From: Chloroflexota bacterium
GTDB lineage: Bacteria; Chloroflexota; Anaerolineae; Promineifilales; Promineifilaceae
Reading direction: 5' to 3'
DNA: 32,466 nucleotides
Assembly: GCA_018004935.1 (NCBI GenBank)
Contig: JAGNBF010000014.1
Coordinates: 1-32,466 of the forward strand
Shown here in pieces: positions 1 to 32,466 of this stretch (positions are counted from its first letter, which is position 1; the number at the start of each line of letters is the position of its first letter). A program made the position numbers and the translations under genes. The notes under the pieces are model-generated. The model saw only the letters and a program-made list of their open reading frames with translations. It had not been told where the DNA came from and searched no databases.

Positions 1-314
1 AAATGAACCCATCCCCCTAGTGATTCCCCCCAGCGGGAAGGGGGAACCCTATCTACGGGCAAAATGGGGTGTAACACACCCCATTTTGCCCGCCTGGGAA
101 AACTCCCCGCCCCTGGGGGCGGGGGTGGGGGTGGGGGAAAAGCGGCTTGCTCACCAAAATGAACCCATTCCCCTAGTGATTCCCCCCAGCGGGAAGGGGG
201 AACCTAATCTATGGGCAAAATGGGGTGTAACACACCCCATTTTGCCCGCCTGGGATAACTCCCCGCTCCTGGGGGCGGGGGCGGGGGTGGGGGAAACTCC
301 GCGTAGGCAATCAC
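1..314. repeat. Tandem duplication of a ~156-bp unit (two copies, ~95% identical). Each unit contains a perfect 16-bp-stem hairpin (57-91 and 213-247) next to a G/C palindrome CCCCGCCCC-n-GGGGCGGGG. I call this 'family A'.
   Basis: Direct reading. 1-156 and 157-300 align base-for-base with a few substitutions. The hairpin is gggcaaaatggggtgt-aac-acaccccattttgccc. Confidence 0.85.
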
Positions 315-5187: not shown

Positions 5188-5318
5188 ATTTCGGGGTCTT
5201 TGGGATTTCAGGGGGTTGACACCATCTGTAGGGGCAACCCTTGTGGTTTGCCCTCGGCGGGGCAGGCACAAGGCCAGCCCCTACATGTAGCCGCACCCCA
5301 CGAATTCCGAAAGAACCA
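5188..5318. repeat. Family-B palindromic MITE-like element (~120 bp). Other copies are at 13690-13812, 17995-18095 and 28190-28300. Partial copies are at 1966-2010 and 21617-21660.
   Basis: The shared ends are ggttcttggg(g/a)atttc(a/g)(g/t)ggggt ... accccgcgaattc(t/c)gaaagaacc. The interior has paired hairpins (gggcaacc/ggttgccc and ggcaggcacaagg/ccttgtg). The interior of the 13690 copy is inverted relative to the 5188 copy. Confidence 0.8.
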
Positions 5319-5361: not shown

Positions 5362-7500
5362 TTATAAGGCGTGACGATTGCCCATGACACTGACATCGTA
5401 CCCAGGTAACTGAGCCACCGCCTGACGAAATGTGCCATCGTGCAGGAGATCAAGTAGCGGCCGCAACAAATCCCCTTCCCCATGTTCCGCTGGTATCACC
5501 AGGTCGTACCGCTCCTGCGCCAGGGGGACAAAATCCAGTTGCAGGGCACGCGCGGCCGCAACCACCCCCAACCCCATGTCCGCCGTACCGCTGGAAATCG
5601 CGGCCGCGACCGCCAGATGGGTGTACTCTTCCCGCTCATACCCGGTCACCATCTCCGGCACGATGCCCCGTTGGCCTAACTCATAATCCAACAACACCCG
5701 CGTCCCCGCCCCCCTCTGCCGATTTACTAACCGGATGTCCGGGCGGGCAGAGTCTTCCCACCCCTTGATCCCTTTCGGGTTGCCCGGTGGGATGATCCAG
5801 CCTTGCTCCCGCCCCACCAGGGTGATCAGCATCACCTTTTGCCCCGGCAGGTAACGGTGGATGTACGAAACGTTGTATTCACCCGTCGCCGGGTCGAGCA
5901 GGTGGGAGCCAGCCAGATGGGCTTCGCCGCGCCGTAAGGCCACCAGCCCCCCCAGACTACCCACATTAGCGGAGCTGAGTCTGCGGCCGCGTTCGGCCAA
6001 AAATTGGGCCATTAAATCCAGCGTCAAATCGTGACTGCCAATGCACAAAATCGTCCGCTCAATCTCCGGCACGGTGCGATACAGGTGAACCGTCACCTGC
6101 GCCCCCGCCTCTTCTCCTTCGCTAAACCGGGGAATCCGCACGATGCCATCCGCCCGCACCAACGAGGTAATCACCCCCGCCCCCCGGCTGATGGGCGTCG
6201 CCAACACCTTCTCCCCCACCTTACCCACCGCCACCCGCACAAAATCATCATCCCCGGTGTGAGAAACCACCTTTCGTGTCAGGGTCGCCGGGAGTGTGGG
6301 CGGCTCATAGGCCGGTTGCCCCTGCCAACGGGCCAGCAACGGCTCGACGAATATCTCCCCGGTCAGTGCGGCACTGACGGGATAGCCGGGCACGCCAATG
6401 ATGGGGAGCGAGTGGGCGAGTGGGCGAGTGGGCGAGTAGGCGACTGATTCACCGTGTCTCCGCGTCGCCGCGTCCCCCTCTCGCCGCGTCCCCGCGTCCC
6501 CGCGTCTCTCGATCATCCCTAAAATAACTGGATGCCCCGGCCTGACCGCCACCCCATGCACCAGGAGTTGGCCTAGCTCTTGCACGACGTGGGCGGTGTA
6601 ATCTTTGCTCCCGGCGGATGAACCAGCATTGACGAGGATGAGGTCGTGGGATGCGGCCGCGTCTTTCACCGCCGCCACAATCTTCTCCCACTCATCCGGC
6701 ACAATCGGCCAACGGGTGGGAATGCCCCCCCACTGCTCCACCTGCCCGGCCAGGACAAGGGAGTTGAATTCGATGATTTGGCCGGGGGAAAGGGCCGAGT
6801 GGTGAGTGCTGAGTGCTGAGTCAGGAGAGTGAGAGACTGAGAGACTGGAGACTGGAGACTGTTCGCTGTTCACTGTCAACTGTTCACGGCTAACTGCTTC
6901 CACACTGACCAACTCTGACCCGGTGGGGATGATGGCGACCCGCGGCCGCGTATAAACCGTGACCATCGCATGACCAGAACCGGCCAAGGCTCCCAGGTCA
7001 ACCGGGCGCAGTTTGTGGTTGGCGGGCAGAACCAGTTCCGTGGCGACCATATCCTCGCCCAGCGGCCGCACATGGGTCCAGGGGGCCAGGCTGGCCCGAA
7101 TCTCGATGGCCGATGCGCCGATTTTTTGGGTGTGTTCAATCATTACCACCGTATCAGCCCAGATGGGCAGGGGCGCACCGGTATTGACCGCCTGCGCCGG
7201 GCGCACCCCTGGGGCAATATCTTCCCACGCTTCGGCCAGGGTCAACTGGAGGGGATTTGTCTCGGTGGCCTCGTGGGTGTCACGGGCACGCAGGGCGTAG
7301 CCATCCATGGCACTGGCGTGGTAATGGGGGGCGGAAATTCTGGCCCACACCGGCTCGGCGGTTACGCGGCCCAACGCCTGGGTGAGCGGGATGGTTTCTG
7401 TGCCGAGGGGTTGCCAGAGAGAGGCAGATTGCAACGCGGCCGCGAACCGGCGCCACGCTTCGTCAAGGGGTAAATCTTCGAGGTAAATGTTTCGTTTCAT
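5362..7500 (-). CDS. moeA: Molybdopterin molybdenumtransferase (MoeA) fused to a C-terminal PBP-like (molybdate/tungstate-binding-type) domain. It carries two low-complexity insertions.
   Basis: MoeA motifs are 'ISAPHYHASAMDGYA', 'NTGAPLP...ADTVVMIEHT', 'PRVAIIPTGSELV' and 'LILVNAGSSAGSKDYT...VAVRPGHP'. The C-terminal ~300 aa look PBP-like. I chose the start at the 7500 ATG (MKRNIYLEDLPL). The ORF track extends the frame to 7569. Confidence 0.8.
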   Translation of the reverse strand: MKRNIYLEDLPLDEAWRRFAAALQSASLWQPLGTETIPLTQALGRVTAEPVWARISAPHYHASAMDGYALRARDTHEATETNPLQLTLAEAWEDIAPGVRPAQAVNTGAPLPIWADTVVMIEHTQKIGASAIEIRASLAPWTHVRPLGEDMVATELVLPANHKLRPVDLGALAGSGHAMVTVYTRPRVAIIPTGSELVSVEAVSREQLTVNSEQSPVSSLSVSHSPDSALSTHHSALSPGQIIEFNSLVLAGQVEQWGGIPTRWPIVPDEWEKIVAAVKDAAASHDLILVNAGSSAGSKDYTAHVVQELGQLLVHGVAVRPGHPVILGMIERRGDAGTRREGDAATRRHGESVAYSPTRPLAHSLPIIGVPGYPVSAALTGEIFVEPLLARWQGQPAYEPPTLPATLTRKVVSHTGDDDFVRVAVGKVGEKVLATPISRGAGVITSLVRADGIVRIPRFSEGEEAGAQVTVHLYRTVPEIERTILCIGSHDLTLDLMAQFLAERGRRLSSANVGSLGGLVALRRGEAHLAGSHLLDPATGEYNVSYIHRYLPGQKVMLITLVGREQGWIIPPGNPKGIKGWEDSARPDIRLVNRQRGAGTRVLLDYELGQRGIVPEMVTGYEREEYTHLAVAAAISSGTADMGLGVVAAARALQLDFVPLAQERYDLVIPAEHGEGDLLRPLLDLLHDGTFRQAVAQLPGYDVSVMGNRHAL
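6405..6510. repeat. Microsatellite-like repeats inside moeA: (gagtgggc)x3-4 followed by cgcgtcccc-type repeats
   Basis: Direct reading of 'gagtgggcgagtgggcgagtgggcgagtaggc' and 'cgcgtcgccgcgtccccctctcgccgcgtccccgcgtccccgcgtc'. On the minus strand they encode '...ERRGDAGTRREGDAATRRHGESVAYSPTRPLAHSLP...'. Confidence 0.8.
6797..6862. repeat. Microsatellite-like 7-nt repeats inside moeA: (gagtgct)x2, (gagactg)x3-4
   Basis: Direct reading. On the minus strand they encode the low-complexity segment 'SEQSPVSSLSVSHSPDSALSTHHSALSP', inserted between MoeA motifs 'IIPTGSELVSV' and 'GQIIEFNS'. Confidence 0.8.
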
Positions 7501-10254: not shown

Positions 10255-10563
10255 GCGCCTGTTGGGTTAGGTTGTGCGCCGTTTTTGTGGTTATGAAGTG
10301 GGATGGGCGGGAGATGGGTCACAGTGCATAAGGCCTGAGGGCTTGCTCGCAAAATAATGTTTGAGTTTGCTGTGGCCGATCTCTCGACCGAGCCACCCCA
10401 GGGGCAGGAAACTTTTTTGGGTGCCGTTTTCCGGGGCGAAAGTCCCGAAAAACGGCACTGTTGAACGCCCCTTCTCGTGGGGAATTGTAGGGGGATAAGT
10501 GTCTTTTGTGGTGTGGGCCAGCACCCTGATAGCCTGAACTTAGCGAAGGTTAGCCCTGTATAG

Positions 10564-13508: not shown

Positions 13509-13519
13509 TTCGCTTCTAT

Positions 13520-13680
13520 GTAACTGTTCAGTTGTGTCAATTCAGCTACCATCCCGCCCGGTCGTTTTACGACTGGCTATGGCGACAAAGGCCGTTGACC
13601 TGGTGTTTTAGCTTGTAGGGCTTCGTCCATTGAGTCTGGCAGTTTGATCGCCGGGCGGGGTAACTGAACACGTATACCTG
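13520..13680. repeat. Family-C MITE-like element (~140-160 bp) with terminal inverted repeats (TIRs) GTAACTGTTCAGTT...AACTGAACRCKTAC. Other copies are at 2525-2640, 16895-17040 and 24780-24920. Fragments are at 18215-18260, 30275-30320 and 31500-31560.
   Basis: The shared core is cccgcccggtcgttttacgaccgggcta(c/t)ggttacaaaggccg(c/t)tggcctgg(g/t)gttttagcccgca.ggc...agcccggcggtttgaccgccgggc.ggataactgaacgcttaca. Internal perfect stems are ccggtcg/cgaccgg and gcccggcgg/ccgccgggc. Confidence 0.8.
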
Positions 13681-13823
13681 TATACACAAAAGTCGGGGTT
13701 TTTGGGAATTCAGGGGGTTGACACCAGATGTACGGGCTGGCCTTGTGCCTGCCCCGTGTAGGACAACCGCAAAGGTTGCCCGTATCCCACGAAATCCGGA
13801 AGACCCAAAAGTCGTAAATCCCT

Positions 13824-14531
13824 TTACCCACCCGAAATCTGAATCAGGTTTACCAACGCATCCCGATCGCGAATGGTGAAATGGCGACCACTGACATCTA
13901 CCCATTTAGAGCGCCGGAAGCGCCCTAATGCTTTGTTGATACTCACCCGTGTTCCCCCGGTCATTTCTGCCAGGTCAGTTTGGGTCAGGGAAATATCAAT
14001 CTCAATGCCATTTCCGGCCGGTTTGCCATATTGATCGGCCAACCGCAGGAGGGTGCGGGCCAACCGTGCTGGCAGATCCAAAAAGAAGATATCACTAAGC
14101 TGATTGTTCAAAACACGTATGCGGGTCGCCATTACCGAAAGGACGTGATGGGCAATCCCAGGGGTGTTATCCAGAAACAAGTTGAAGGTATGGCCATCCA
14201 GGGTATACGTTTCGGTAGGTTCGATGGCTTCAGCGGTTGCGGAGCGGGGGGAAGAATCAAGCAAGGAAAGTTCACCGAAGAAATCTCCTGGCCCTAAGAT
14301 TGCCAGGAGTGCTTCTTGCCCATCTGGGTTGCTGTAGGAGATTTTTACCTTACCACTGGTAATAATGTAGAGTAGACCACCCGGATCACCCAGGTGAAAA
14401 ATGATCTGGTCGGTGTGGAAACGACGCAGAAGCAGTTTTTCGGCAAGTGAAGCGGTTTCTTCAGCATTCAGGCGGGCAAAAAATGGCACCTGTTGTAAAA
14501 CATGGGCCGCAGTTTTCTTGGGCTGGCGCAT
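13824..14531 (-). CDS. Crp/Fnr-family transcriptional regulator (cNMP-binding domain plus C-terminal HTH)
   Basis: 'GDPGGLLYIITSGKVKI...GELSLLD' is a cNMP-binding fold. 'TQTDLAEMTGGTRVSINKALGRFRR' is an HTH. GGAGGA lies 10 nt upstream of the ATG. Confidence 0.85.
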   Translation of the reverse strand: MRQPKKTAAHVLQQVPFFARLNAEETASLAEKLLLRRFHTDQIIFHLGDPGGLLYIITSGKVKISYSNPDGQEALLAILGPGDFFGELSLLDSSPRSATAEAIEPTETYTLDGHTFNLFLDNTPGIAHHVLSVMATRIRVLNNQLSDIFFLDLPARLARTLLRLADQYGKPAGNGIEIDISLTQTDLAEMTGGTRVSINKALGRFRRSKWVDVSGRHFTIRDRDALVNLIQISGG

Positions 14532-14639
14532 TGTTCCTCATTCCTCCATTTTCCTGTGTGATCAGGAAATGCACCACCTACTTTAACACAAATTCTATGA
14601 CCTATGCCAATTTTCTTGCAGAAATTGTAAGGGTGATGG

Positions 14640-15115
14640 TCTACGCGGATTTCCCCCACCCCTAACCCCGCCCCCAGGGGCGGGGAACTTTTAGTGGGCG
14701 TTTTTCGCGGGCATTCGCCCGCGAAAAACGCCCACATTGTTTTTTCCCCTTCCTGCGGGGAATGGTTAGGGGGATGGATTATGGGGCGTGCGGATTTTCT
14801 CTGCCTCTAATCCCGATCCCAGGGGCGGGGAACTTTTAGTGGCCGTTTTTCGCGGGCATTCGCCCGCGAAAAACGCCCACATTGTGTTTTTCCCTTCCTG
14901 CGGGGAATGGTTAGGGGGATGGGTTATGGGGCGTGCAGATTTTCTCTGCCTCTAATCCCGATCCCAGGGGCGGGGAACTTTTAGTGGGCGTTTTTTCCCC
15001 TTCCTGCGGGGAATGGTTAGGGGGATGGGTTATGGGGCGTGCGGATTTTCTCTGCCTCTAATCCCGATCCCAGGGGCGGGGAACTTTTAGTGGGCGTTTT
15101 TCCCTTCCTGCCGGG
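14640..15115. repeat. Array of 4 tandem family-A units (~146, 144, 114 bp, then a truncated unit). Units 1-2 carry a 17-bp-stem hairpin. Units 3-4 have it precisely deleted.
   Basis: Each unit begins ccaggggcggggaactttt. The hairpin is gggcgtttttcgcgggc-att-gcccgcgaaaaacgccc at 14696-14733 and 14841-14878. Units 3-4 read ...gggcgttttttcccc..., lacking the hairpin. Confidence 0.85.
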
Positions 15116-15146
15116 TGTTTGTTGAACGGGTAAGGAATGTTCGTGT

Positions 15147-16880
15147 TTATTCTTCCAGTTGGGCACGCAGGCTCAGGATGTGGCTTTCTAATTCGGTTAG
15201 TTGTTTTTCTTGCTCTGTGAGGCGGTCTTTTTCAGCGCGGACGAAACGGGAGAAGGGGGCAATACTGTTATCAATACGTTGAAAGGCCCGGCGCATTTCT
15301 CGGTTGAACTGTTCAGTAAGGCTGTTTATTAATTGGCGGCGCAGGTCGGCCAATTTTTGTTCCAGTTCTTGTTTGGCTTTGCGACGGCGCATAGGGAGGA
15401 TGAGAAGGCCCAGGGTCGCGGCCGCGAGGCCAGCCACAATACCCGTTACATCTACCCATACCACCTGTACCGCCAGAGCAATGGCTACCCCTACACCAAC
15501 CCCTACCCCGGCCAGGCCAGCTTCCACAACGGCCATACGGGCACTCTCCGCCAACCGCACAGCTTCCCCTTCATTGTCGTAATTTTCAATGGCGGTTTGT
15601 ACTGTCTTGCCGATGGAATCTACCAGTCGTTGCCGATCATAAGCCAACGTGCCTTCACGGGGGCCACCCTGGCCGATAATACGATCCTCATGATGTTGCC
15701 GCCGCTGGGCCAGATGCTCTGCCACCGCCGACCACTGGCGTAAATCTTGCTCCACCATCCAATCCACCAACTCCCCAACGCGGGTTTCGATCTGTTGTGG
15801 GGTATCCCCGATAACCTGGGCTTCGTAGTGCTCTTTGATTTTGCCTGTCTGAATGAGATCGGTAATGCGCCCCAGACGAATGGTTTCATCAAAGAAACTG
15901 TTGCCTCGTTTTTCGATGCCGTAAATCAGATTCTCTATTTCACTCAGGCGGGCGGTAAATTGCCGTTGCATATCATCCTGATAATAGCGTTGTTGGGTTT
16001 CGATGTCGCCCAGTAAGGTGGTATCTTCGCTTAATCCTTCCAGATCTTTGCGGACGACGTCTAGCTGTTTTTTAACCAATTTTTGTCCCACACCCAGGGG
16101 GTTAAGGAGCTTTAGCCGGAAGCGGCCGCGATCATCCAATGTTTCTTCAATAAAACGTTCTAACGGTTCAAAGCCACTCCCTCCCCACAGACGCGGTTCT
16201 CCCCCTTTCGCTTTTTGGGCCAGTTTCGCCGAAATGGGAAAAATGGCGGCAATCTCACCGATCAACCGTTTGCCAGCCTCACGCACAAACTCCATAACCT
16301 TTTCCACTTCAGTCTGATTATCCAGAATGTCTATTTTGTTGATCAGCAAAACAATCTTTTTCCCCCAATCTCGGATGCGGGCCAGAAATGCCCGTTCGCT
16401 CTCTGTAAACGGCCTATCCGCAGAGGTGAGAAACAGCACCAGATCACTGCGCGGAATAAAATCAGCCGTGAGCATTTCATGCTCCCGCAAAATGGCGTTG
16501 GTTCCCGGCGTGTCTACGATGTTGATGTTTCTCAGCCAGGACACCGGGGCTGTATGGACCCAAATCCCTTTTTCCCGTGGTGTCTGGGTAACGGTTTCTC
16601 CATATTTCAACAGGTGAATATGACTCGTCGTGGGGGTAACGCCCTCGGCCAGCAACCCGGAATGACCTAACAAAGCATTGATGAAGGATGATTTTCCAGA
16701 GTTAAACTCCCCGGCAATGACCAGCAGGAATAACTCATCTAATTGACGTAATGAGTCAGCGAGCGCTGTTCGGTCATCGGTGGCGGCGGAACTGCTGGCC
16801 AGCACATCTCGTAACTGCCCCAGAATATGCCGGGTTTGCTTCAATAACGCTTCTTGAGGTTCGTCTAAAATTGTGTCCAT
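15147..16880 (-). CDS. Bacterial dynamin-like GTPase with a C-terminal transmembrane segment and coiled coil
   Basis: G1 is 'GEFNSGKSSFINALLG', G3 is 'VDTPG', G4 is 'NKID'. 'VGVGVGVAIALAVQVVWVDVTGIVAGLAAATLGLLILP' is hydrophobic. The C-terminus 'EQEKQLTELESHILSLRAQLEE' is coiled coil. Confidence 0.8.
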   Translation of the reverse strand: MDTILDEPQEALLKQTRHILGQLRDVLASSSAATDDRTALADSLRQLDELFLLVIAGEFNSGKSSFINALLGHSGLLAEGVTPTTSHIHLLKYGETVTQTPREKGIWVHTAPVSWLRNINIVDTPGTNAILREHEMLTADFIPRSDLVLFLTSADRPFTESERAFLARIRDWGKKIVLLINKIDILDNQTEVEKVMEFVREAGKRLIGEIAAIFPISAKLAQKAKGGEPRLWGGSGFEPLERFIEETLDDRGRFRLKLLNPLGVGQKLVKKQLDVVRKDLEGLSEDTTLLGDIETQQRYYQDDMQRQFTARLSEIENLIYGIEKRGNSFFDETIRLGRITDLIQTGKIKEHYEAQVIGDTPQQIETRVGELVDWMVEQDLRQWSAVAEHLAQRRQHHEDRIIGQGGPREGTLAYDRQRLVDSIGKTVQTAIENYDNEGEAVRLAESARMAVVEAGLAGVGVGVGVAIALAVQVVWVDVTGIVAGLAAATLGLLILPMRRRKAKQELEQKLADLRRQLINSLTEQFNREMRRAFQRIDNSIAPFSRFVRAEKDRLTEQEKQLTELESHILSLRAQLEE

Positions 16881-17053
16881 AAACTTTTTAACCCATTACG
16901 TAACTACGTAACCGTTCCGTTGTGTCAATTCATCCGCCAGCCCACCGGTCGTTTTACGATCGGGTTATCGTTACAAAGGCCGTTGGCCTGGCTTTTTAGC
17001 CCGCAGGGCTTCGTCGGGGCTTCGACAAGTTCAGGCCTCAAGAGCGTTAGTCG

Positions 17054-17860: not shown

Positions 17861-18483
17861 ACAAGCTCAGGCAACGGCTTACAAGCCCAGGCAACAGGCT
17901 TAGCAGTTACGAGGTATGGTTCAAAAGTCGAGATACGGTGCTTAACAATATGTAGGGCGATTTGGTAAAGGGGGTGTTTCATTTTGGTTGAAAGGAAGAA
18001 AATAAGTTCTTTGGGGTTTCGTGGGGTACGGGCAACCCTTGTGGTTGCCCCACACGGGGTAGGCACAAGGCCAGCCCGTACATCTGCTGTCAACCCCTTA
18101 ATTCTCAGAGACTTATTATTCAACTCATTTGAAACATACCCTGTGCCTAATCGTCCTACATATTTGTAAAGCAGACCTGAACCATGCCGTTACGAAAATA
18201 CGCGATTACTTATAAAGCCAAGTTTACGACCGGGTAACGGTTTGGACAAGCCGCAAGCACTATTTCTCTGGGTGATTTGTTTTTTGTGGACGGGCAAGGG
18301 AAAGCCATGAACGGTGATCTGGCTTAAATTGGTTGTTTCAGGGTCTTTTCAATCAGGAGATGGGTGACTTTGTATTTGCCCACCAGGGCGATTTGAGGGG
18401 CGCGTTTCTTCTGGTTGCGAAGATGCTTGTTTTAGTTTTGTTTGTTGTTGAAAAGAACAGTATTCACGATGGAGGAGGTTTTT

Positions 18484-21093
18484 ATGCAGTTTTTTGCTCG
18501 TTGGGGACGGTTCGCGGCCGCGATCCTTTTTGTTGCCTTTGGTGTCTGGGTTATTTCTATCCTGGCCACCCCTACCCGCACGACAACATCTGTTCAAGAC
18601 AGTGTCGCCGCTTTGGCTCCAGGCCGTTCTGGCGATGGTACTGGTGCTACCGATGAATTAGCCGCTCAAGACATTCAATTAGTTTATGGTGATCCGGTTC
18701 TACCGGCCAAGGTCAACCTGGCCGACGTGCCCAGCCGCGTTGCTGAGGTAGACACCCTATATCAACGTTATCTGAATGGCGACATCCGCGAAGTCAACGA
18801 AGGGCCAGTAGACGAAGCACTCTTCTTTGATCTGTTAGCCGAATCCGCCAAACAGGGGGTTGATCCTACTGTACAGAATTATGATGATAGCCTGGCCCCG
18901 TTGGGCATTTTAGGTGGGGGAGCCAGTTTTAAATCTATTGATTACACCCAATCCCAACAAGGTGTTCCGCCGGATCCAGATATTATGGTTGGGCGGGATC
19001 ATGTTGTGGTGGGAGTCAATACCAGCTTTCAGGTTTTTGATAAAAGCGGCAACAGCCTGTATGGCCCGGTACTGTATGCTGATTTTTGGGGCGCGAATTG
19101 TGGTACAGGCAGTAATGTGGTCATGTTTGACCCCTATTCTGTGTATGATGAAGAAAACAGCCGCTACGTCTTGGGTATTACCGCTTATGATCCTAATGTG
19201 AATGGGGGTGACAACGGTTGGGCCTGTATGGCCGTTTCACAAACGGATAGTGCCACTGGTAGCTGGTATCTCTACTCTTTTGATGGTAATCCTGGCACAG
19301 GAACCGATTATTTCTTTGACTACCCCCATATCGGGGTGGGGCAGGATGCGTTGTATATGGGGGCCAATATGTTCGGGGCGGCCTTTACCCGTAACCATGT
19401 CCTGGCCTTTCAAAAAGATGCTATGTATGCTGGCACTTCTGCCAGTTATGTGAAATTAAATGTTGCCTCCACTTACTTCACCTTACAACCGGCCAAACTG
19501 AAAGGGTTTGCCAGTGGTGGCTGGCCGACGAGTACCACGGAAGCGCATTATTTTGTGGATGCTAATTATGGCAATAACCAGACCGCGCTTCATGTATGGC
19601 GGTTCAGTAACCCTTGGGGCGCGGCCGCGATGACGTTGGCTGGTACCTTAACTGTGAACAGTTACAGCCTGCCGGTGAGCCAGCCGCAACTGGGTGGCAG
19701 TAATATTCAAGGCAATGACAACCGTCTGCTGGATGTGGAATATTGGGGCGGGTATCTGTGGGCCACGCATGCCGTAGGTTGTAATCCTGGCAGTGGTACC
19801 GTGAACTGTATTCGCTGGTATCAGATTGATGTTCGCGGGGCGACACCGACGCTGGTCCAACAAGGAACATTTAGCAGTGCCAGTAATTATCGTAGTTTCC
19901 CCGACCTGGCGGTGAACCGTTGTGGCGATATGTTGGTAGGTTATACCCGCACCAGCACCACAATGTATCCTGGTGTGTATGTGGCTGGGCGTGAAGCCGC
20001 CGATGCCGCCGGTACGCTGAAGAGTGAGACATTGGTAAAAGCCGGTGAGGATTTCTATACGGCGTATGATAGTGTGCCCCGCCGTTGGGGTGATTATACG
20101 GGAATGGCCCTGGACCCGGATGGTGTGACGTTCTGGTATGTGGGCGAGTATTCGCGGCCGCAGACTACCGCCCGTTGGTCTACCTGGGTTGGTTCCTTCA
20201 CCTGGTCTGGTTGTACTGTCGGTGGCCCCACCCCCACCCCCGTCGGGCCTACACCTACCAATACACCCATTGTCCCCACAGCTACTCCCACCAATACCCC
20301 CGTTCCCCCAACCGCTACACCCACCCCGACCGGTGGTAGCCAGATTTACGCTGGTTCCACTACCAGTGGTGCGGCTGGCGGCGTCGCCTTTGATAATGAC
20401 GACATCCTCATTTACAACACCAGTTCAGCCACCTGGAGCCTCTACTTTGATGGTTCAGATGTGGGCCTGGGCAGTGCCGATGTGGATGCATTTGAATTAA
20501 TGAGCGATGGCACTGTACTGATCAGCCTGGCGGCTTCCTTCTCCGTAACCGGTTTGGGTACAGTGGCCGATGCCGACATCGTGCGCTTTACGCCCACTTC
20601 CACGGGCAGTACCACCGCCGGAACTTTCTCCTGGTACTTTGATGGCTCAGATGTGGGGTTGACAACGACCAACGAAGACATTGACGCGGTGGAAATTCTG
20701 AGTGATGGCCGTATACTCGTTAGCACATTAGGCAACGTCAGTGTGACCGGCGCCTCTGGGGATGACAAAGACTTACTCGCCTTCACCCCCACGGCATTGG
20801 GAGCAACCACCAGCGGTACCTGGGCCTTATACTTTGATGCCTCAGATGTGGGTCTCACAGCGGCAAATGAGGATGTCAATGGTGTCTGGGTTGATAGTAA
20901 CGGAAACATTTACCTGACGACCATTGGTGCTTTTACCGTAACTGGGGCCAGTGGAGATGGCGCGGATATTTTCCGTTGTGTGCCAGGTTCTCTAGGTAGC
21001 ACCACCACTTGTACCTTTAGCCTCTACTGGGATGGTTCGGTGAATGGGTTTGCAGGTGAAGTCCTGGATTCGTTCGCCCTCGTACAACCGTAG
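18484..21093 (+). CDS. Large secreted or membrane-anchored protein. It has an N-terminal signal anchor, a ~480-aa beta-rich domain, a Pro/Thr linker and 3.5 C-terminal ~66-aa tandem repeats.
   Basis: The strong RBS GGAGGAGG lies 7 nt upstream of the ATG at 18484. The signal anchor is 'FAAAILFVAFGVWVISILA'. The linker is 'GGPTPTPVGPTPTNTPIVPTATPTNTPVPPTATPTPTGG'. The repeats carry 'GT(F/W)SLYFDGSDVGL...EDVDAVE..SDG.IL'. The track ORF begins at 18442. Confidence 0.7.
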   Translation: MQFFARWGRFAAAILFVAFGVWVISILATPTRTTTSVQDSVAALAPGRSGDGTGATDELAAQDIQLVYGDPVLPAKVNLADVPSRVAEVDTLYQRYLNGDIREVNEGPVDEALFFDLLAESAKQGVDPTVQNYDDSLAPLGILGGGASFKSIDYTQSQQGVPPDPDIMVGRDHVVVGVNTSFQVFDKSGNSLYGPVLYADFWGANCGTGSNVVMFDPYSVYDEENSRYVLGITAYDPNVNGGDNGWACMAVSQTDSATGSWYLYSFDGNPGTGTDYFFDYPHIGVGQDALYMGANMFGAAFTRNHVLAFQKDAMYAGTSASYVKLNVASTYFTLQPAKLKGFASGGWPTSTTEAHYFVDANYGNNQTALHVWRFSNPWGAAAMTLAGTLTVNSYSLPVSQPQLGGSNIQGNDNRLLDVEYWGGYLWATHAVGCNPGSGTVNCIRWYQIDVRGATPTLVQQGTFSSASNYRSFPDLAVNRCGDMLVGYTRTSTTMYPGVYVAGREAADAAGTLKSETLVKAGEDFYTAYDSVPRRWGDYTGMALDPDGVTFWYVGEYSRPQTTARWSTWVGSFTWSGCTVGGPTPTPVGPTPTNTPIVPTATPTNTPVPPTATPTPTGGSQIYAGSTTSGAAGGVAFDNDDILIYNTSSATWSLYFDGSDVGLGSADVDAFELMSDGTVLISLAASFSVTGLGTVADADIVRFTPTSTGSTTAGTFSWYFDGSDVGLTTTNEDIDAVEILSDGRILVSTLGNVSVTGASGDDKDLLAFTPTALGATTSGTWALYFDASDVGLTAANEDVNGVWVDSNGNIYLTTIGAFTVTGASGDGADIFRCVPGSLGSTTTCTFSLYWDGSVNGFAGEVLDSFALVQP

Positions 21094-21163: not shown

Positions 21164-21826
21164 GTATTCATCGCAAAATATAGCGCCTAAGAAAAAGATG
21201 TTGGGTTCTTTTGGAATTGGCGGTGGGTGGCACGGTCAGGAGATCCGCCACAGCAAAGGAAGACCAGCGACAGCAGGGGGGAAATTCAATCACGCTCAGA
21301 TAAGTTCCCGGCCCGCAGGGGCGGGGTTAGGGCGGGGGTTACTGGGGCCAATTGCCCCTGAGACTTGTCATAAAACGCTAATGACTACTTTCGTAATAGT
21401 GTCCTAGATTTCTGGATTCAGCACACTTTTCTTATGCTATAATGCCCAGCGAGGGGAATTCACGGCCTTTACATTGGTTTACCTCTGGTAAATTGTTATT
21501 ATTTTTCGTAACTATACACGTCCTCGAGGGCTGAGCTTGTCGAAGGTGGAGCCGGGCTTCGACAAACTCAGCCCTCGCTATACCCCACCTGTATAGATAC
21601 TATTTTTCAATCATAACGGTAAAGCCAGCGGTTCTTGGGAATTCAGGGGGTTGTCCGTACCCCTCGAAACCCCCAAGCGACTTACGCGATTGCTGGAGCG
21701 AGTCTTCTGACTGTGTTTTTGTGGCTGGGTGGGGACACAGCCACAGCCCGTTAAGTTCTATTCTCAATAAATATTCCTGAGCCAGCCGAAGCCTTCTTCC
21801 TGGCCCTCTCTGAAGCGAACCATACG

Positions 21827-23152: not shown

Positions 23153-24133
23153 ATGAATAACGAAATGAATCCCCTGATGCCTTTTATTGTGCGTCAGGGG
23201 TTTTTGCTTTTGGATGGGGGACTGGCGACGGAGTTGGAGCGGCGCGGACATGATCTGAACGATCCGCTCTGGTCGGCGCGGCTGTTGGCCGATATGCCCC
23301 ACGCGATTGCCCAGTTGCATGAGGATTATCTGCAAGCCGGAGCAGATTGTCTGATTACGGCCAGTTATCAGGGCACGATTGCCGGATTCAGGCGGCGGGG
23401 GTTTAGTCAGAAGGAGGCGCTGGCCCTTTTGCGTCGGGCTGTAGAACTGGCTGTAACAACGCGAGACCGATTTTGGTCCCGTGCCGAGAACCAAAGGGGG
23501 CGGTTGCGGCCGCTTGTGGCCGCCAGTATTGGCCCATATGGGGCCTACCTGGCCAATGGTGCCGAATATACCGGGGATTATGATGTAGACGAAGCTGGAT
23601 TGGTGGCCTTTCACCAGGAGCGATGGTCTGTTCTGGCCCAGAGTGGGGCGGATCTGATGGCCTGTGAGACGATCCCCTCGGCGGTAGAAGCGCGAGCGTT
23701 GGCGCAGGTTATACCAACCACACCCACTATGCCGGTGTGGGTTAGTTTTAGTTGCCGGGATGGGGAGCATATTTGTGATGGAACATTATTGACGGAAGCG
23801 GTGCGGCCGCTACTTCTTTTGCCCCAGGTTGTTGCCCTCGGTGTGAACTGTACGGCCCCTTCAGCCATTCCCAGCCTGATTGCTCACCTGAAGGCGGTAA
23901 CGACTAAACCTATTGTGGTCTACCCTAATTCTGGAGAAACGTATGATGCGGCAAATCGGTGCTGGTTGGGGGTGACAAAGGCAGATGCGTTCGCGGCCGC
24001 GAGCCTGACCTGGTATCAAACAGGGGCACAGCTTATTGGCGGTTGTTGCCGTACTGGGCCAGAACATATTCAGGAGATGCGGGCAAAACTGAGTAAGGGA
24101 AAAGTAGCCTTTCCATCTGCTGAGAATAGGTGA
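23153..24133 (+). CDS. mmuM: Homocysteine S-methyltransferase (MmuM/BHMT family)
   Basis: 'LLLDGGLATELERRGHDLNDPLWSA', 'GADCLITASYQ' and a C-terminal 'GGCCRTGPEHI' zinc-binding motif. GAGGAG lies upstream of the ATG at 23153. Confidence 0.8.
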   Translation: MNNEMNPLMPFIVRQGFLLLDGGLATELERRGHDLNDPLWSARLLADMPHAIAQLHEDYLQAGADCLITASYQGTIAGFRRRGFSQKEALALLRRAVELAVTTRDRFWSRAENQRGRLRPLVAASIGPYGAYLANGAEYTGDYDVDEAGLVAFHQERWSVLAQSGADLMACETIPSAVEARALAQVIPTTPTMPVWVSFSCRDGEHICDGTLLTEAVRPLLLLPQVVALGVNCTAPSAIPSLIAHLKAVTTKPIVVYPNSGETYDAANRCWLGVTKADAFAAASLTWYQTGAQLIGGCCRTGPEHIQEMRAKLSKGKVAFPSAENR

Positions 24134-24739: not shown

Positions 24740-24936
24740 ATCAGAGCAAGAAAAAGGTAAGCGTTCAGTCATATAAATTTATCCGCCAGACCCGCCCGGA
24801 CGTAAAACGACCGGGCTACGGTTACAAAGGCCGCTGGCCTGGGGTTTTAGCCCGCATGGCTTTATATGTTTAGCCCGGCGGTTTGACCGCCGGGTAGGAT
24901 AACTGAACGCTTACAGAAAAAGAAAAGGAATACACC

Positions 24937-25674
24937 ATGCCCCTTACACCAATGCAAACACAACGCAAATCCCTGCCCTGGGTCTGGCTTGCCCTGGCTT
25001 TACCCCCTATCCTTTTTCTACTGAGCATTATCTTAGCCTCAATTTATATCGGGTTTATCAACCAGGGAGATACCACGGTTATTGCCGAGCAAGTGTCCCA
25101 GGCAACGCCACAAATTCTGGTGGTGGTGCAAATTTTAATGCTCGGCCTGCTTTTGTGGGTGCGTCGGGCCAATGGGTTACGCTGGGCCGATTTAGGCTGG
25201 AAGGTGCACACGGGTCAAACAGTCGTCCGAGAACTGGTGTTAGGGGCAGTGATTGGCGCACCATTAGCCATGCTTTATGTCTTTGTCCTGTCCCCGCTGA
25301 TGGTTACACTACAACAGACGGTAGGCGATTATGTACCCCCCGATGAACTGCTCTCCTCATTGGGGGCCTCTGTTTGGCCCTTTTTCCTGGCCAATGTAGT
25401 CCTGGCTCCTTTTGTCGAAGAGAACATTTATCGGGGGTTTGCCCTGCCGCAATTGCAGAAGCGGTATCGGTTTCTGCCAGCGCTGGTGCTTTCTTGTTTG
25501 TTTTTTGGATTGCTCCATTGGGCCGGGGGATTTTGGTACATCATTCTGACGGGTGTGGTGGCAGGAGGGGTTTTGGCTGGTTTGTATGTATGGCGCGGCA
25601 ATATTTTGGCCCCTTTTGCCGCTCATCTCACACTCAACATTATCGAATTTCTGCTGATCAGGCTTCTGGTGTAA
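24937..25674 (+). CDS. CPBP-family (CAAX protease/Abi) intramembrane metalloprotease
   Basis: 'FVEENIYRGF' is the EExxxR motif. 'FFGLLHW' is the FxxxH motif. 'FAAHLTLN' follows. The protein is polytopic. Confidence 0.8.
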   Translation: MPLTPMQTQRKSLPWVWLALALPPILFLLSIILASIYIGFINQGDTTVIAEQVSQATPQILVVVQILMLGLLLWVRRANGLRWADLGWKVHTGQTVVRELVLGAVIGAPLAMLYVFVLSPLMVTLQQTVGDYVPPDELLSSLGASVWPFFLANVVLAPFVEENIYRGFALPQLQKRYRFLPALVLSCLFFGLLHWAGGFWYIILTGVVAGGVLAGLYVWRGNILAPFAAHLTLNIIEFLLIRLLV

Positions 25675-27937: not shown

Positions 27938-28653
27938 TGTCAGGTCTTGACGGAATTTAATCTTTTACAGGCCCTAAGTGGAAAACAAGGTAACGACTAA
28001 ACCCGTTGCCTGAGCTTGTCGAAGGCAAACGGGCTTCGACAAGCTCGGCCCTGGAGAGGGTTAGTTGTTACAAAACAAGAACGAAAGTTCGCTATTTTAC
28101 CACAAATCAGGAGTACAGGCAGGGCGATCACCTACTCGTCTAGCAATTCTCAATTCAACCAACGGTTATGGAGATTAAACAAATTGGGTTCTTGGGGATT
28201 TCATGGGGTACGGGCAACCCTTGTGGTTGCCCCACACGAGGCAGGCACAAGGCCAACCCCTACATTTAGCCCCACCCCGCGAATTCTGAAAGAACCCAAA
28301 TTATACTTACTTGAGTTTAGAGTTCAGAGCCAAAGCTAGAGGGTTTTCCAGAGTAATTTCCTCTTGCTCTCTCCTCTCGCTCTAAACTCCGGTACTTACC
28401 ACGGTCATAAAATGACATTTTGTTGGCGGCAACTGCTGAGTAAGCCTGGGCAGAAGACCCATCCCCCTACCCCTTTCCAAAGGGAAGGGGGGAAACCGCA
28501 CCAGAAATAGTTCCCCGCCCCTGGGGGCGGGGAACTTTTGAAGAGCCGTTTTTTGCAGGCATTCGCCCGCGAAAAACGGCCCCAATTGCCCTACATGCGG
28601 TGAGCACCCTGGTCGCTGAGTTTGGCAAAGGCGATACCTGTGGTTTGGTTGTT

Positions 28654-31504: not shown

Positions 31505-32039
31505 ACATTATCGGGTGAGCAAACCCGCCCGGCGGTCAAACCGCCAGGCTTTCAGTAGTCGTGCAAAAATAACGTGGGTGGCACGGTCAGGCGACCGGCC
31601 ACAGCAAAGCGTTCAGTTAAATTCGGGTACCGTGTTGATTCGCCCATCCCCCTACGATTCCTGCCGAGAAGGGAGAAATACCAGGAGTGCCGGTTTTCGA
31701 GCGCACCGCCGCGCTCGAAAACCGGCACATTAAAAAGTTCCCCGCCTCTGGGGCAGGGTTAGGGGTGGGAGAAAATCCACGTATGCAATTGCCCCACAAA
31801 CCAGAGAAAATTACCGGGCAGGGGCTGTATTTTGTGTTAGAGTTGAGCAGAAAAAGCTGGTCAGCCAGGAAGCTATAGCTTTCAAGAAAAAGATTTTGGG
31901 TTTGTAGTAACCGCTTTAGCGGTCCCACGCTGGACGGCTAAAGCCGTTACTACCAACCAAAACCCCAAATGATTTTCTGAACATCTATAAGAAGCTGGTC
32001 AGCATTTCAGCCAGTCAGCACTTCGGCTGACAAGCCGAC

Positions 32040-32466
32040 CAGCTAAAATGCTGACAAACTATTCTTACAGGAGTTCCCCATGGATGGTATGCACACCAAG
32101 ATGGATGAAAATAACGCCACCATTTTTCATTCCTATCCGTGTTTTTTCCTATCCGTGTTTCCACCATCAGTGGCAATTTTCTCAGGAGTTCCCCATGTGC
32201 CTTTGGCACACCAAGAGGGATGAAAATCTGTAGGACGATTTGGTAAATCGTCCGGGCGATTTGCCAAATCGCCCTACATTTCGTAGGAGTTCCCCATGGG
32301 CCTATGGCACACCAAGATGGATGAAAATAACGCCACCATTTTTCATTCCTATCCGTGTTTTTTCCTATCCGTGTTTCCACCATCAGTGGCAATTTTCTCA
32401 GGAGTTCCCCATGTGCCTTTGGCACACCAAGAGGGATGAAAATCTGTAGGACGATTTGGTAAATCG
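32040..32466. repeat. Higher-order tandem array. It consists of 43-bp units (ggagttccccatgNgcctNtggcacaccaagaNggatgaaaat) alternating with two different inserts of 72 and 58 bp. Each insert occurs twice, so the array is a ~216-bp super-unit duplicated. It runs off the window end.
   Basis: Direct reading. Units lie at 32069, 32184, 32285 and 32400. Insert 1 is identical at 32112-32183 and 32328-32399. Insert 2 (32227-32284 and 32443-end) is a near-perfect ~50-bp palindrome made of two 9-bp-stem hairpins, ggacgattt-ggt-aaatcgtcc and gggcgattt-gcc-aaatcgccc. Confidence 0.85.

Follow-up and report, generated by a model that had tools for sequence, protein, structure and literature searches.

A tandem array of a mosaic palindromic repeat between a Crp/Fnr-type gene and a dynamin-like gene in Chloroflexota varies between strains in unit number and hairpin content

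The window analysed here is the whole stretch of 32,466 nucleotides (nt) at positions 1 to 32,466 of contig JAGNBF010000014.1, from an uncultured Chloroflexota bacterium of wastewater (assembly GCA_018004935.1). The locus of interest is a head-to-tail tandem array at 14647-15115 on the plus strand, built from a small palindromic repeat termed family A here. The array is flanked by two genes on the minus strand. On one side lies a Crp/Fnr-type regulator gene (13824-14531; 235 amino acids, aa; cNMP_binding, 1.6e-25; HTH_Crp_2, 1e-18), with its start codon 115 nt from the array. On the other side lies a dynamin-family GTPase gene (15147-16880; 577 aa; Dynamin_N, 6e-21), with its stop codon 31 nt from the array. 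Gene calls and domain matches bear out this location, which had been given in the original prediction made from the bare sequence. Tandem Repeats Finder called the array with a period of 145 nt (2.3 copies, 95% matches, score 612) and made a second call with a period of 106 nt (score 428). A repeat finder agreed, with spacings of 145, 145 and 106 nt between units (family D1). Four units had been predicted. The head-to-tail arrangement stands, but the last unit is truncated after about 70 nt, so that the array comprises three full units and a partial one.

Comparison of copies resolves family A into a mosaic that begins with a C-rich 5' end (CCCCCACCCCTAACC), continues with three hairpins (H1, H2 and H3) and closes with a G-rich 3' end (GGTTAGGGGGATGG), the two ends being complementary. 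H1 consists of CCCCGCCCC-CA-GGGGCGGGG followed by AACTTTT, the long H2 has 14-19 pairs and a sequence that changes from copy to copy, and H3 has the form CCCCTTCC...GGGGAA. Unit borders were set by cutting at the recurrent motif [A/G]GATTT. Unit 1 (u1; 14647-14791, 145 nt) is a complete element with the 5' variant A1. Its small G+C hairpin H1 (14666-14685) is terminator-like on the plus strand only, and its H2 (14694-14735) reads GGGCGTTTTTCGCGGGC-ATTC-GCCCGCGAAAAACGCCC, extendable to 19 pairs. Unit 2 (u2; 14792-14936, 145 nt) carries the 5' variant A2 and an H2 of the same type (14839-14880) with one C/C mismatch (GGCC opposite GCCC). Unit 3 (u3; 14937-15042, 106 nt) is without 39 nt holding most of H2. 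The terminal unit (u4; 15043 to about 15115) also has no H2, and its homology to the other units stops at about 15111-15115. The predicted presence of the hairpin in the first two units and its absence from the last two are thus correct, but the loop is the 4-nt ATTC rather than ATT.

The units are not otherwise identical, as had been stated, since the 5' segment of u1 differs from that of u2-u4 at eight positions. Variant A1 (14647-14675) and variant A2 (14792-14820, and likewise in u3 and u4) are separated by six C>T, one A>G and one C>A changes in 29 nt. Identity over the remainder of the units is 95% or more. Such a strong bias towards transitions on one strand would preserve G-U pairs in plus-strand RNA, or may reflect cytosine deamination. 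As single-stranded DNA, u1 is predicted to fold end to end into a rod (-50.2 kcal/mol; z = -7.2 against shuffles), in which CCCCCACCCCTAACC pairs with GGTTAGGGGGATGG as terminal inverted repeats. These ends are degenerate in A2. The predicted fold of u3 is no better than that of shuffles (z = 0.4).

The footprint of the missing hairpin was defined by removing 39 nt from a filled (hairpin-bearing) unit and comparing the result with u3. The gap has seven equivalent placements, which corresponds to a 6-nt microhomology, GTTTTT. In u1 coordinates, the missing piece extends from 14700-14738 through 14706-14744. The direct repeat has its first copy within the 5' arm of H2 (14700-14705, plus strand) and its second in the spacer between H2 and H3 (14739-14744, plus strand), while u3 retains a single GTTTTT at its junction (14990-14995, plus strand). 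The junction of u4 falls at 15096-15101 (plus strand) by unit comparison. Depending on placement, 6-12 nt of the 5' arm are kept, with GGGCGTTTTT surviving at the junction, and the loss runs 3-9 nt past the 3' arm. A hairpin of about 35 bp missing exactly at its base, as originally described, is therefore not what the junction holds, because the 39-nt gap ends in GTTTTT repeats of which one is within the stem. Replication slippage at hairpins with short direct repeats on either side has been shown to cause deletions, both in vitro and in vivo (PMC4134008). To judge from its letters, u3 bears the footprint of such slipped-strand mispairing between direct repeats around a hairpin, not that of excision at the foot of a module.

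Variation at the locus was assessed on contigs encoding an identical Crp or an identical dynamin-like protein (compared contigs carry L-numbers). The window is 100% identical to contig JAGNCW010000008.1 of GCA_018004095.1 (L002), and the flanks of the other assemblies are 99.4-99.96% identical to the window. The spacer between the two genes nevertheless occurs as six alleles of 219, 313, 364, 615, 642 and 654 nt with 1-4 units and 0-3 hairpins, and the unit-number polymorphism between strains and metagenome variants that was to be looked for is thus present. The longest allele (654 nt; L004, GCA_037045095.1) has three filled units and the terminal unit. The 642-nt allele (L001) is like it except for a loss of 12 nt in unit 3. 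The window and L002 share the 615-nt allele with two filled units, one empty unit and the terminal unit. One filled unit plus the terminal unit make up the 364-nt allele (L008), and one empty unit with a 12-nt loss plus the terminal unit the 313-nt allele (L005). The 219-nt allele (L003; L006 is consistent but cut) is a single chimeric unit with the A1 5' end, no H2 and the right flank. The u3 position is filled in both L001 and L004, and ATGG repeats border the 12 nt missing from L001 and L005. Three operations, namely gain or loss of 145 nt, loss of 39 nt and loss of 12 nt, explain all alleles (654-39=615; 654-290=364; 364-145=219; 654-12=642; 642-290-39=313). The terminal unit is without H2 in all 13 of the 13 contigs that reach it.

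One further contig, L032 (GCA_020054605.1), ends 245 nt after the dynamin-like gene. The central module of its penultimate unit is of another kind, made up of CGTGGGGATTTTCCCCACG and then CCACAAATACTATGACCTTTG, and the second part of this module resembles the unique crp-proximal flank at 14589-14608 of the window. By its sequence, this unit would be either a diverged unit or an assembly chimera.

Other family-A copies served as control loci. A second tandem array (1-296, minus strand; period 156, with a different H2) is cut by the left edge of the window, continues past it, and sits upstream of a CHAD-domain gene. This array (compared in L038, L039 and L042) has four units in the source genome and in GCA_963853475.1, and two in a metagenome of the JGI. 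On a contig of ERR12160659, its spacer is short enough for about one unit. All units of the second array keep H2. By comparison, solo copy b is unchanged in six assemblies except for one single-nucleotide polymorphism, and the 733-nt spacer with copy d shows at most four mismatches and two gap columns in ten contigs. Variation apparently follows the tandem arrangement and not the hairpin as such, as expected for unequal exchange. An apparently filled left element at locus e (see below) in L047 was not used, as the contig ends inside the repeat, the retained arm differs and the contig is likely a graph chimera. The variants of both L047 and L050 at this locus are untrustworthy, given that short-read contigs often end in the array or in the H1 palindrome.

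Family-A units measure 145-156 nt and occupy six loci in the 32 kb, each between long open reading frames. In addition to the two arrays, repeat comparison located copies at about 10396-10500 (plus strand), about 21287-21340 (minus strand) and about 31640-31800 (minus strand). A head-to-head pair at 28460-28590 (locus e) consists of two elements with a common H1 palindrome. Its minus-strand element (about 28460-28525) has no H2 but keeps GGTGCGGTTT of the H2 5' arm, and its plus-strand element has an H2 related to that of u1 and u2. Across 19 filled copies, 10 of the 13 pairs in the H2 stem show compensatory changes. Such covariation across diverged copies indicates that H2 is an old, structurally maintained and integral module. 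Two occurrences of a G(G)TT(T) motif, within the 5' arm of H2 and immediately ahead of H3, are conserved in the family, which indicates that susceptibility to deletion is built into the element.

Family A appears to be an undescribed non-coding mosaic, an intergenic repeat resembling REP sequences and miniature inverted-repeat transposable elements (MITEs). A search of the whole window against Rfam 15 gave no match at gathering thresholds. Sub-threshold look-alikes on the array (E up to 10) were set aside, including ncS035, the best at 34.9 bits against a gathering threshold of 79, Scr6925 and miRNA hairpins. A coding repeat was rejected, as the period of 145 is not a multiple of three and only spurious short open reading frames occur. 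A CRISPR array was likewise rejected, as units abut without unique spacers and CRISPR-DR10 scores 16.8 bits against a gathering threshold of 39. Look-up of the 424-aa open reading frame adjoining family-A copy f gave nothing on record.

The family was also searched for in one genome per species with a pattern that fixed the two conserved ends and left 21-81 nt between them free. Only Candidatus Trichofilum aggregatum (Chloroflexota, Ardenticatenia, Promineifilaceae) matched, at 16 loci, and the representative of the window's own species gave no match to this pattern. The genus name Trichofilum is reportedly contained in a survey of wastewater Chloroflexota. Twelve of the 16 copies are complete, and the other four have lost or rearranged modules. 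L025 is without H2, with a GGT junction microhomology relative to L020 and with GTGCCGG of the 5' arm kept. L022 and L017 are without H3, the loss in L022 being bounded by GGGTT, and L021 is rearranged. Losses of hairpin modules in T. aggregatum occurred at microhomologies of 3-5 nt. A search for empty and filled hairpin sites elsewhere had been proposed, and L025 and the minus-strand element of locus e are such cases. In T. aggregatum (L011-L026), a larger palindromic element of about 330 nt encloses the family-A core. Its outer inverted ends read TTAAGGAACGAGAATTAAATAAC...GTTATTTAATCCTTGATCCTTAG, and those of a second outer type GGCTTTTCCAAAGTC/GACTTTGGAAAAGCC.

We consider it likely that unequal recombination or replication slippage of whole units, together with hairpin-stimulated slippage at GTTTTT, explains the locus. 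Family A is an end-to-end palindromic element with copies dispersed in the source genome and in Ca. Trichofilum aggregatum. Once two copies stood head to tail, unequal homologous recombination or replication slippage could make the array gain or lose units in steps of 145 nt. Separately, H2 would be lost by slipped-strand mispairing between the two GTTTTT repeats that bracket its G+C-rich inner stem. A polymerase would stall at H2, and the nascent GTTTTT would pair again with the downstream copy, removing 39 nt. The enzymology (slippage, or hairpin cleavage followed by microhomology repair) and the mode by which family A originally spread are steps that we infer. The suggestion that the hairpin is recombinogenic holds in a limited sense, as the presence of H2 varies between alleles and between family copies.

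The junctions carry additional information in their homopolymers. At each empty junction, the lengths of the T-run and C-run match a known filled unit. The junction of u3 in the window reads T6C4 as in u1, the first unit of L005 reads T7C3 with the 12-nt loss as in unit 3 of L001, and the terminal unit reads T5C3. The differing homopolymers suggest that H2 was lost independently more than once at the same repeats, and they speak against simple copying from the terminal unit.

Several observations weigh against these conclusions. Most alleles come from metagenome assemblies, and polymerases used in PCR and library preparation slip at such hairpins. Homopolymer lengths (T5, T6 and T7) are also error-prone in nanopore assemblies, and for both reasons the number of independent deletions is a soft figure. 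H2 is absent from the terminal unit throughout the assemblies, and exchange with that unit could be the source of some empty internal ones. Regarding the nature of the family, the likeness to MITEs is one of anatomy and dispersal only. Presence-absence polymorphism of a whole element was not seen in the approximately 20 kb compared across strains. The flanks show no clear target-site duplication, with imperfect direct repeats at L027. No parent transposase or insertion sequence with matching ends turned up, though no genome-wide search was made, and the only transposase is an IS66 in L004 at an unrelated position.

Gene conversion or unequal crossing-over with the always-empty terminal unit could have produced the empty internal units without new deletions. 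The terminal unit is empty in all alleles, and what it has in common with internal units covers about 60 nt before the junction and about 10 nt after it. The single-unit allele of L003 is exactly such a crossover product, and the homopolymer errors noted above weaken the argument from junctions. However, the downstream homology is very short. The junctions of u3 (T6C4) and of the first unit of L005 (T7C3) also differ from the terminal T5C3, and each fits a GTTTTT-to-GTTTTT deletion of a known filled unit. Conversion is thus an unlikely source of the empty units compared with slippage at the direct repeats.

The array might instead be a contingency locus, with unit or hairpin number selected to tune termination of the dynamin gene or transcription and translation of crp through RNA hairpins, a transcript G-quadruplex or promoter spacing. 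The array lies between two co-oriented genes, and the spacer is hypervariable relative to its flanks. Modular BOX repeats of pneumococci are reported to affect neighbouring genes (PMC3049150). A strong G-quadruplex motif, GGGGGCGGGGTTAGGGGTGGGGG, is located at the 5' end of u1 on the strand of both genes (14653-14675, minus strand), and is lost in A2 (u2-u4) through C>T changes. Thirteen G-quadruplex motifs occur in the window compared with 1.3 in shuffles, and seven of these are at family-A element ends. In addition to the site in u1, these are found on the plus strand at 115-137, 271-293, 14902-14931, 15008-15037, 21318-21338 and 31750-31769. The motif GGGGGCGGGGTTAGGGGTGGGGG is telomere-like (GGGTTAGGGG).

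A regulatory role meets several objections. The position between the genes agrees with the original idea of a terminator for the dynamin gene and a promoter for crp, but the signals themselves do not appear. No intrinsic terminator was found on the gene (minus) strand in 14300-15400, where the only terminator-like sites are H1/H2 of u1 on the plus strand, antisense to both genes. The same interval has no sigma-70-like promoter on either strand, judged by the sigma-70 consensus only (-35 and -10 hexamers with a spacing of 16-18 nt). The 115 nt adjoining crp are constant in all alleles and outside the array. Family-A copies also have no consistent orientation relative to neighbouring genes, and the second array varies likewise beside unrelated genes, as expected of a property of the DNA. 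Strains with one to four units encode identical Crp and dynamin-like proteins, which fits neutrality without proving it. We infer that the array is selfish or neutral DNA for its neighbours, with a modest effect on mRNA stability or readthrough being possible. Selection for expression tuning is rather improbable.

Some 20-30 nt ahead of the crp start codon, at 14550-14563, lies a palindrome, CCTGTGTGATCAGG. This palindrome may be a pair of half-sites of a Crp-type operator, which would suggest autoregulation.

The array or its empty units could also be artefacts of assembly or sequencing, whether from collapsed repeats, chimeric graph paths or slippage of the polymerase in library preparation. 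Such artefacts would be in line with short-read contigs that often end within the array or the H1 palindrome, and with the in vitro slippage of polymerases at hairpins flanked by direct repeats. Yet three independent assemblies each show a four-unit array (contig sizes of 4.58 Mb, 747 kb and 148 kb), and the contig of the window is on record in two samples. The single-unit allele of L003 is on a contig named k127. If this name denotes a k-mer of 127, the junction from A1 to the right flank would fit one k-mer and would then be contained in reads. The hairpin-less terminal unit, recovered in every contig that reaches it, also argues against an artefact, which is very improbable overall.

The original prediction considered H2 an independently mobile module that is precisely excised or inserted. 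The agent could be, for instance, a single-strand transposase that recognises hairpins, of the IS200/IS605 or RAYT type. Filled and empty states do occur at the same position in conspecific genomes and in other family copies, all empty sites are alike in topology (the start of the 5' arm is kept, the rest and the 3' spacer are lost), and one unit of L032 has a different central module. This unit is at a contig end and has many other differences, though, and looks diverged or chimeric. Breakpoints are inside the stem at GTTTTT, GGT or GGTT microhomologies and not at the hairpin foot. Insertion would require that the incoming piece already bore a 3' arm able to pair with the flank at its landing site, and this in each of three subfamilies whose stems differ. 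Stem sequences covary along the lineages of the element, and solo filled copies are stable across strains. No solo H2 outside an element was seen in the window or in a single scan of JGI metagenome contigs for the loop and 3' arm (21 nt), a small sample of four matches. Three of these four are at different loci, each within a full family-A element with covarying outer stem pairs. The fourth, in coding sequence of an unrelated genome rich in G+C, was discarded as due to chance. In-stem breakpoints, covariation and occurrence only inside family-A elements make independent mobility of the hairpin extremely improbable. Creation of the hairpin by template switch was rejected as well, because nothing in the empty site could serve as template for the inner palindrome CGCGGGC/GCCCGCG.

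A bolder proposal, which we give hardly any credence, is that a structure-specific enzyme removes and perhaps exchanges modules of a new class of three-hairpin, G-quadruplex-capped elements of Promineifilaceae, with arrays acting as fast-switching spacers that alter neighbours such as crp. If true, the shared topology of loss in three subfamilies and the replaced module of L032 would be footprints of that enzyme. An IS66-family transposase gene (DUF6444 and DDE_Tnp_IS66, 484 aa) is located at 1550-3004 of L004 (GCA_037045095.1), corresponding to about 17440 in the window, from which it is absent. This insertion in one strain indicates that true transposition is active in the species, though family-A copies did not move.

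Additional repeats were observed in the window. A 216-nt tandem repeat at 32069-32466 (AGGAGTTCCCCATG...CACACCAAGATGGATGAAAATAACGCCACC...TTCCTATCCGTGTTT) runs off the right edge. A homologous repeat of the 216-nt type upstream of a family-A copy in Ca. Trichofilum aggregatum (L013) points to a second repeat family common to both genomes. The motif CGCGGCCGCG (D15, D19) recurs across the window, for example at 7436-7448, 15416-15427, 19619-19630 and 23991-24005, as well as in T. aggregatum loci. It may be an over-represented palindrome like HIP1. At least three further dispersed intergenic repeat families (D2, D8/D9/D12 and D11/D16) occur, with copies at 2526-2657, 13567-13698 and 24806-24937; at 5248-5317, 18005-18132 and 28178-28314; and at 13516-13627 and 16904-17015. 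The source genome is unusually rich in small repeats.

Family A adds an undescribed and very dense mosaic palindromic repeat family in filamentous Chloroflexota abundant in activated sludge. The naturally occurring alleles of the locus form a clean series whose junctions give a direct view of unequal exchange and hairpin-stimulated slippage, though no new mechanism is revealed. Family-A arrays break or collapse short-read assemblies of these organisms and could serve as strain markers.

The array resembles BOX, REP/BIME and MITE repeats, without having the full set of defining features of any of them. Like BOX of Streptococcus pneumoniae (boxA-boxB(n)-boxC), family A is a small, non-coding, intergenic and modular stem-loop repeat with an internal module that is variable in number or absent, and both form tandem arrays. 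The length of BOX varies between strains, more so in longer arrays (PMC3049150). The two have no sequence relationship and come from different phyla. Family A reiterates the whole element, whereas BOX reiterates one internal module, and the variable module H2 is only ever lost, at microhomologies. Target duplications linked to terminal inverted repeats are reported for BOX, while none were seen for family A. With the REP, BIME and REPIN repeats of proteobacteria, family A shares extragenic palindromes in mosaic clusters, abundance in the genome and stems kept by compensatory change. REPINs, however, are inverted pairs of one extragenic palindrome of 20-40 nt, in contrast to about 145 nt with three different hairpins arranged head to tail, and locus e alone is head to head. 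Some family-A copies carry GTAG at the G-rich end (GTAGGGGGATGG). REPs tagged with GTAG reportedly exist, and this resemblance is a lead only. Bacterial MITEs (for example Correia, ERIC and Nezha) likewise are short, lack coding capacity, have ends that can pair with each other and are scattered between genes in many copies, whereas all variation seen in family A is recombinational. The rod-like fold of u1 and the enclosing element in T. aggregatum also recall MITEs. For mechanism rather than family, the closest parallels are the system of Canceill and Ehrlich and the slippage of Trinh and Sinden. In these, deletion takes out a palindrome and one of the two short direct repeats around it (PMC4134008), as in u3, u4, L025, L022 and the minus-strand element of locus e. 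In family A, one repeat is within the outer stem, which leaves the inner 7-bp G+C stem as the only part strictly between the repeats. For family A, natural alleles and not an assay provide the evidence.

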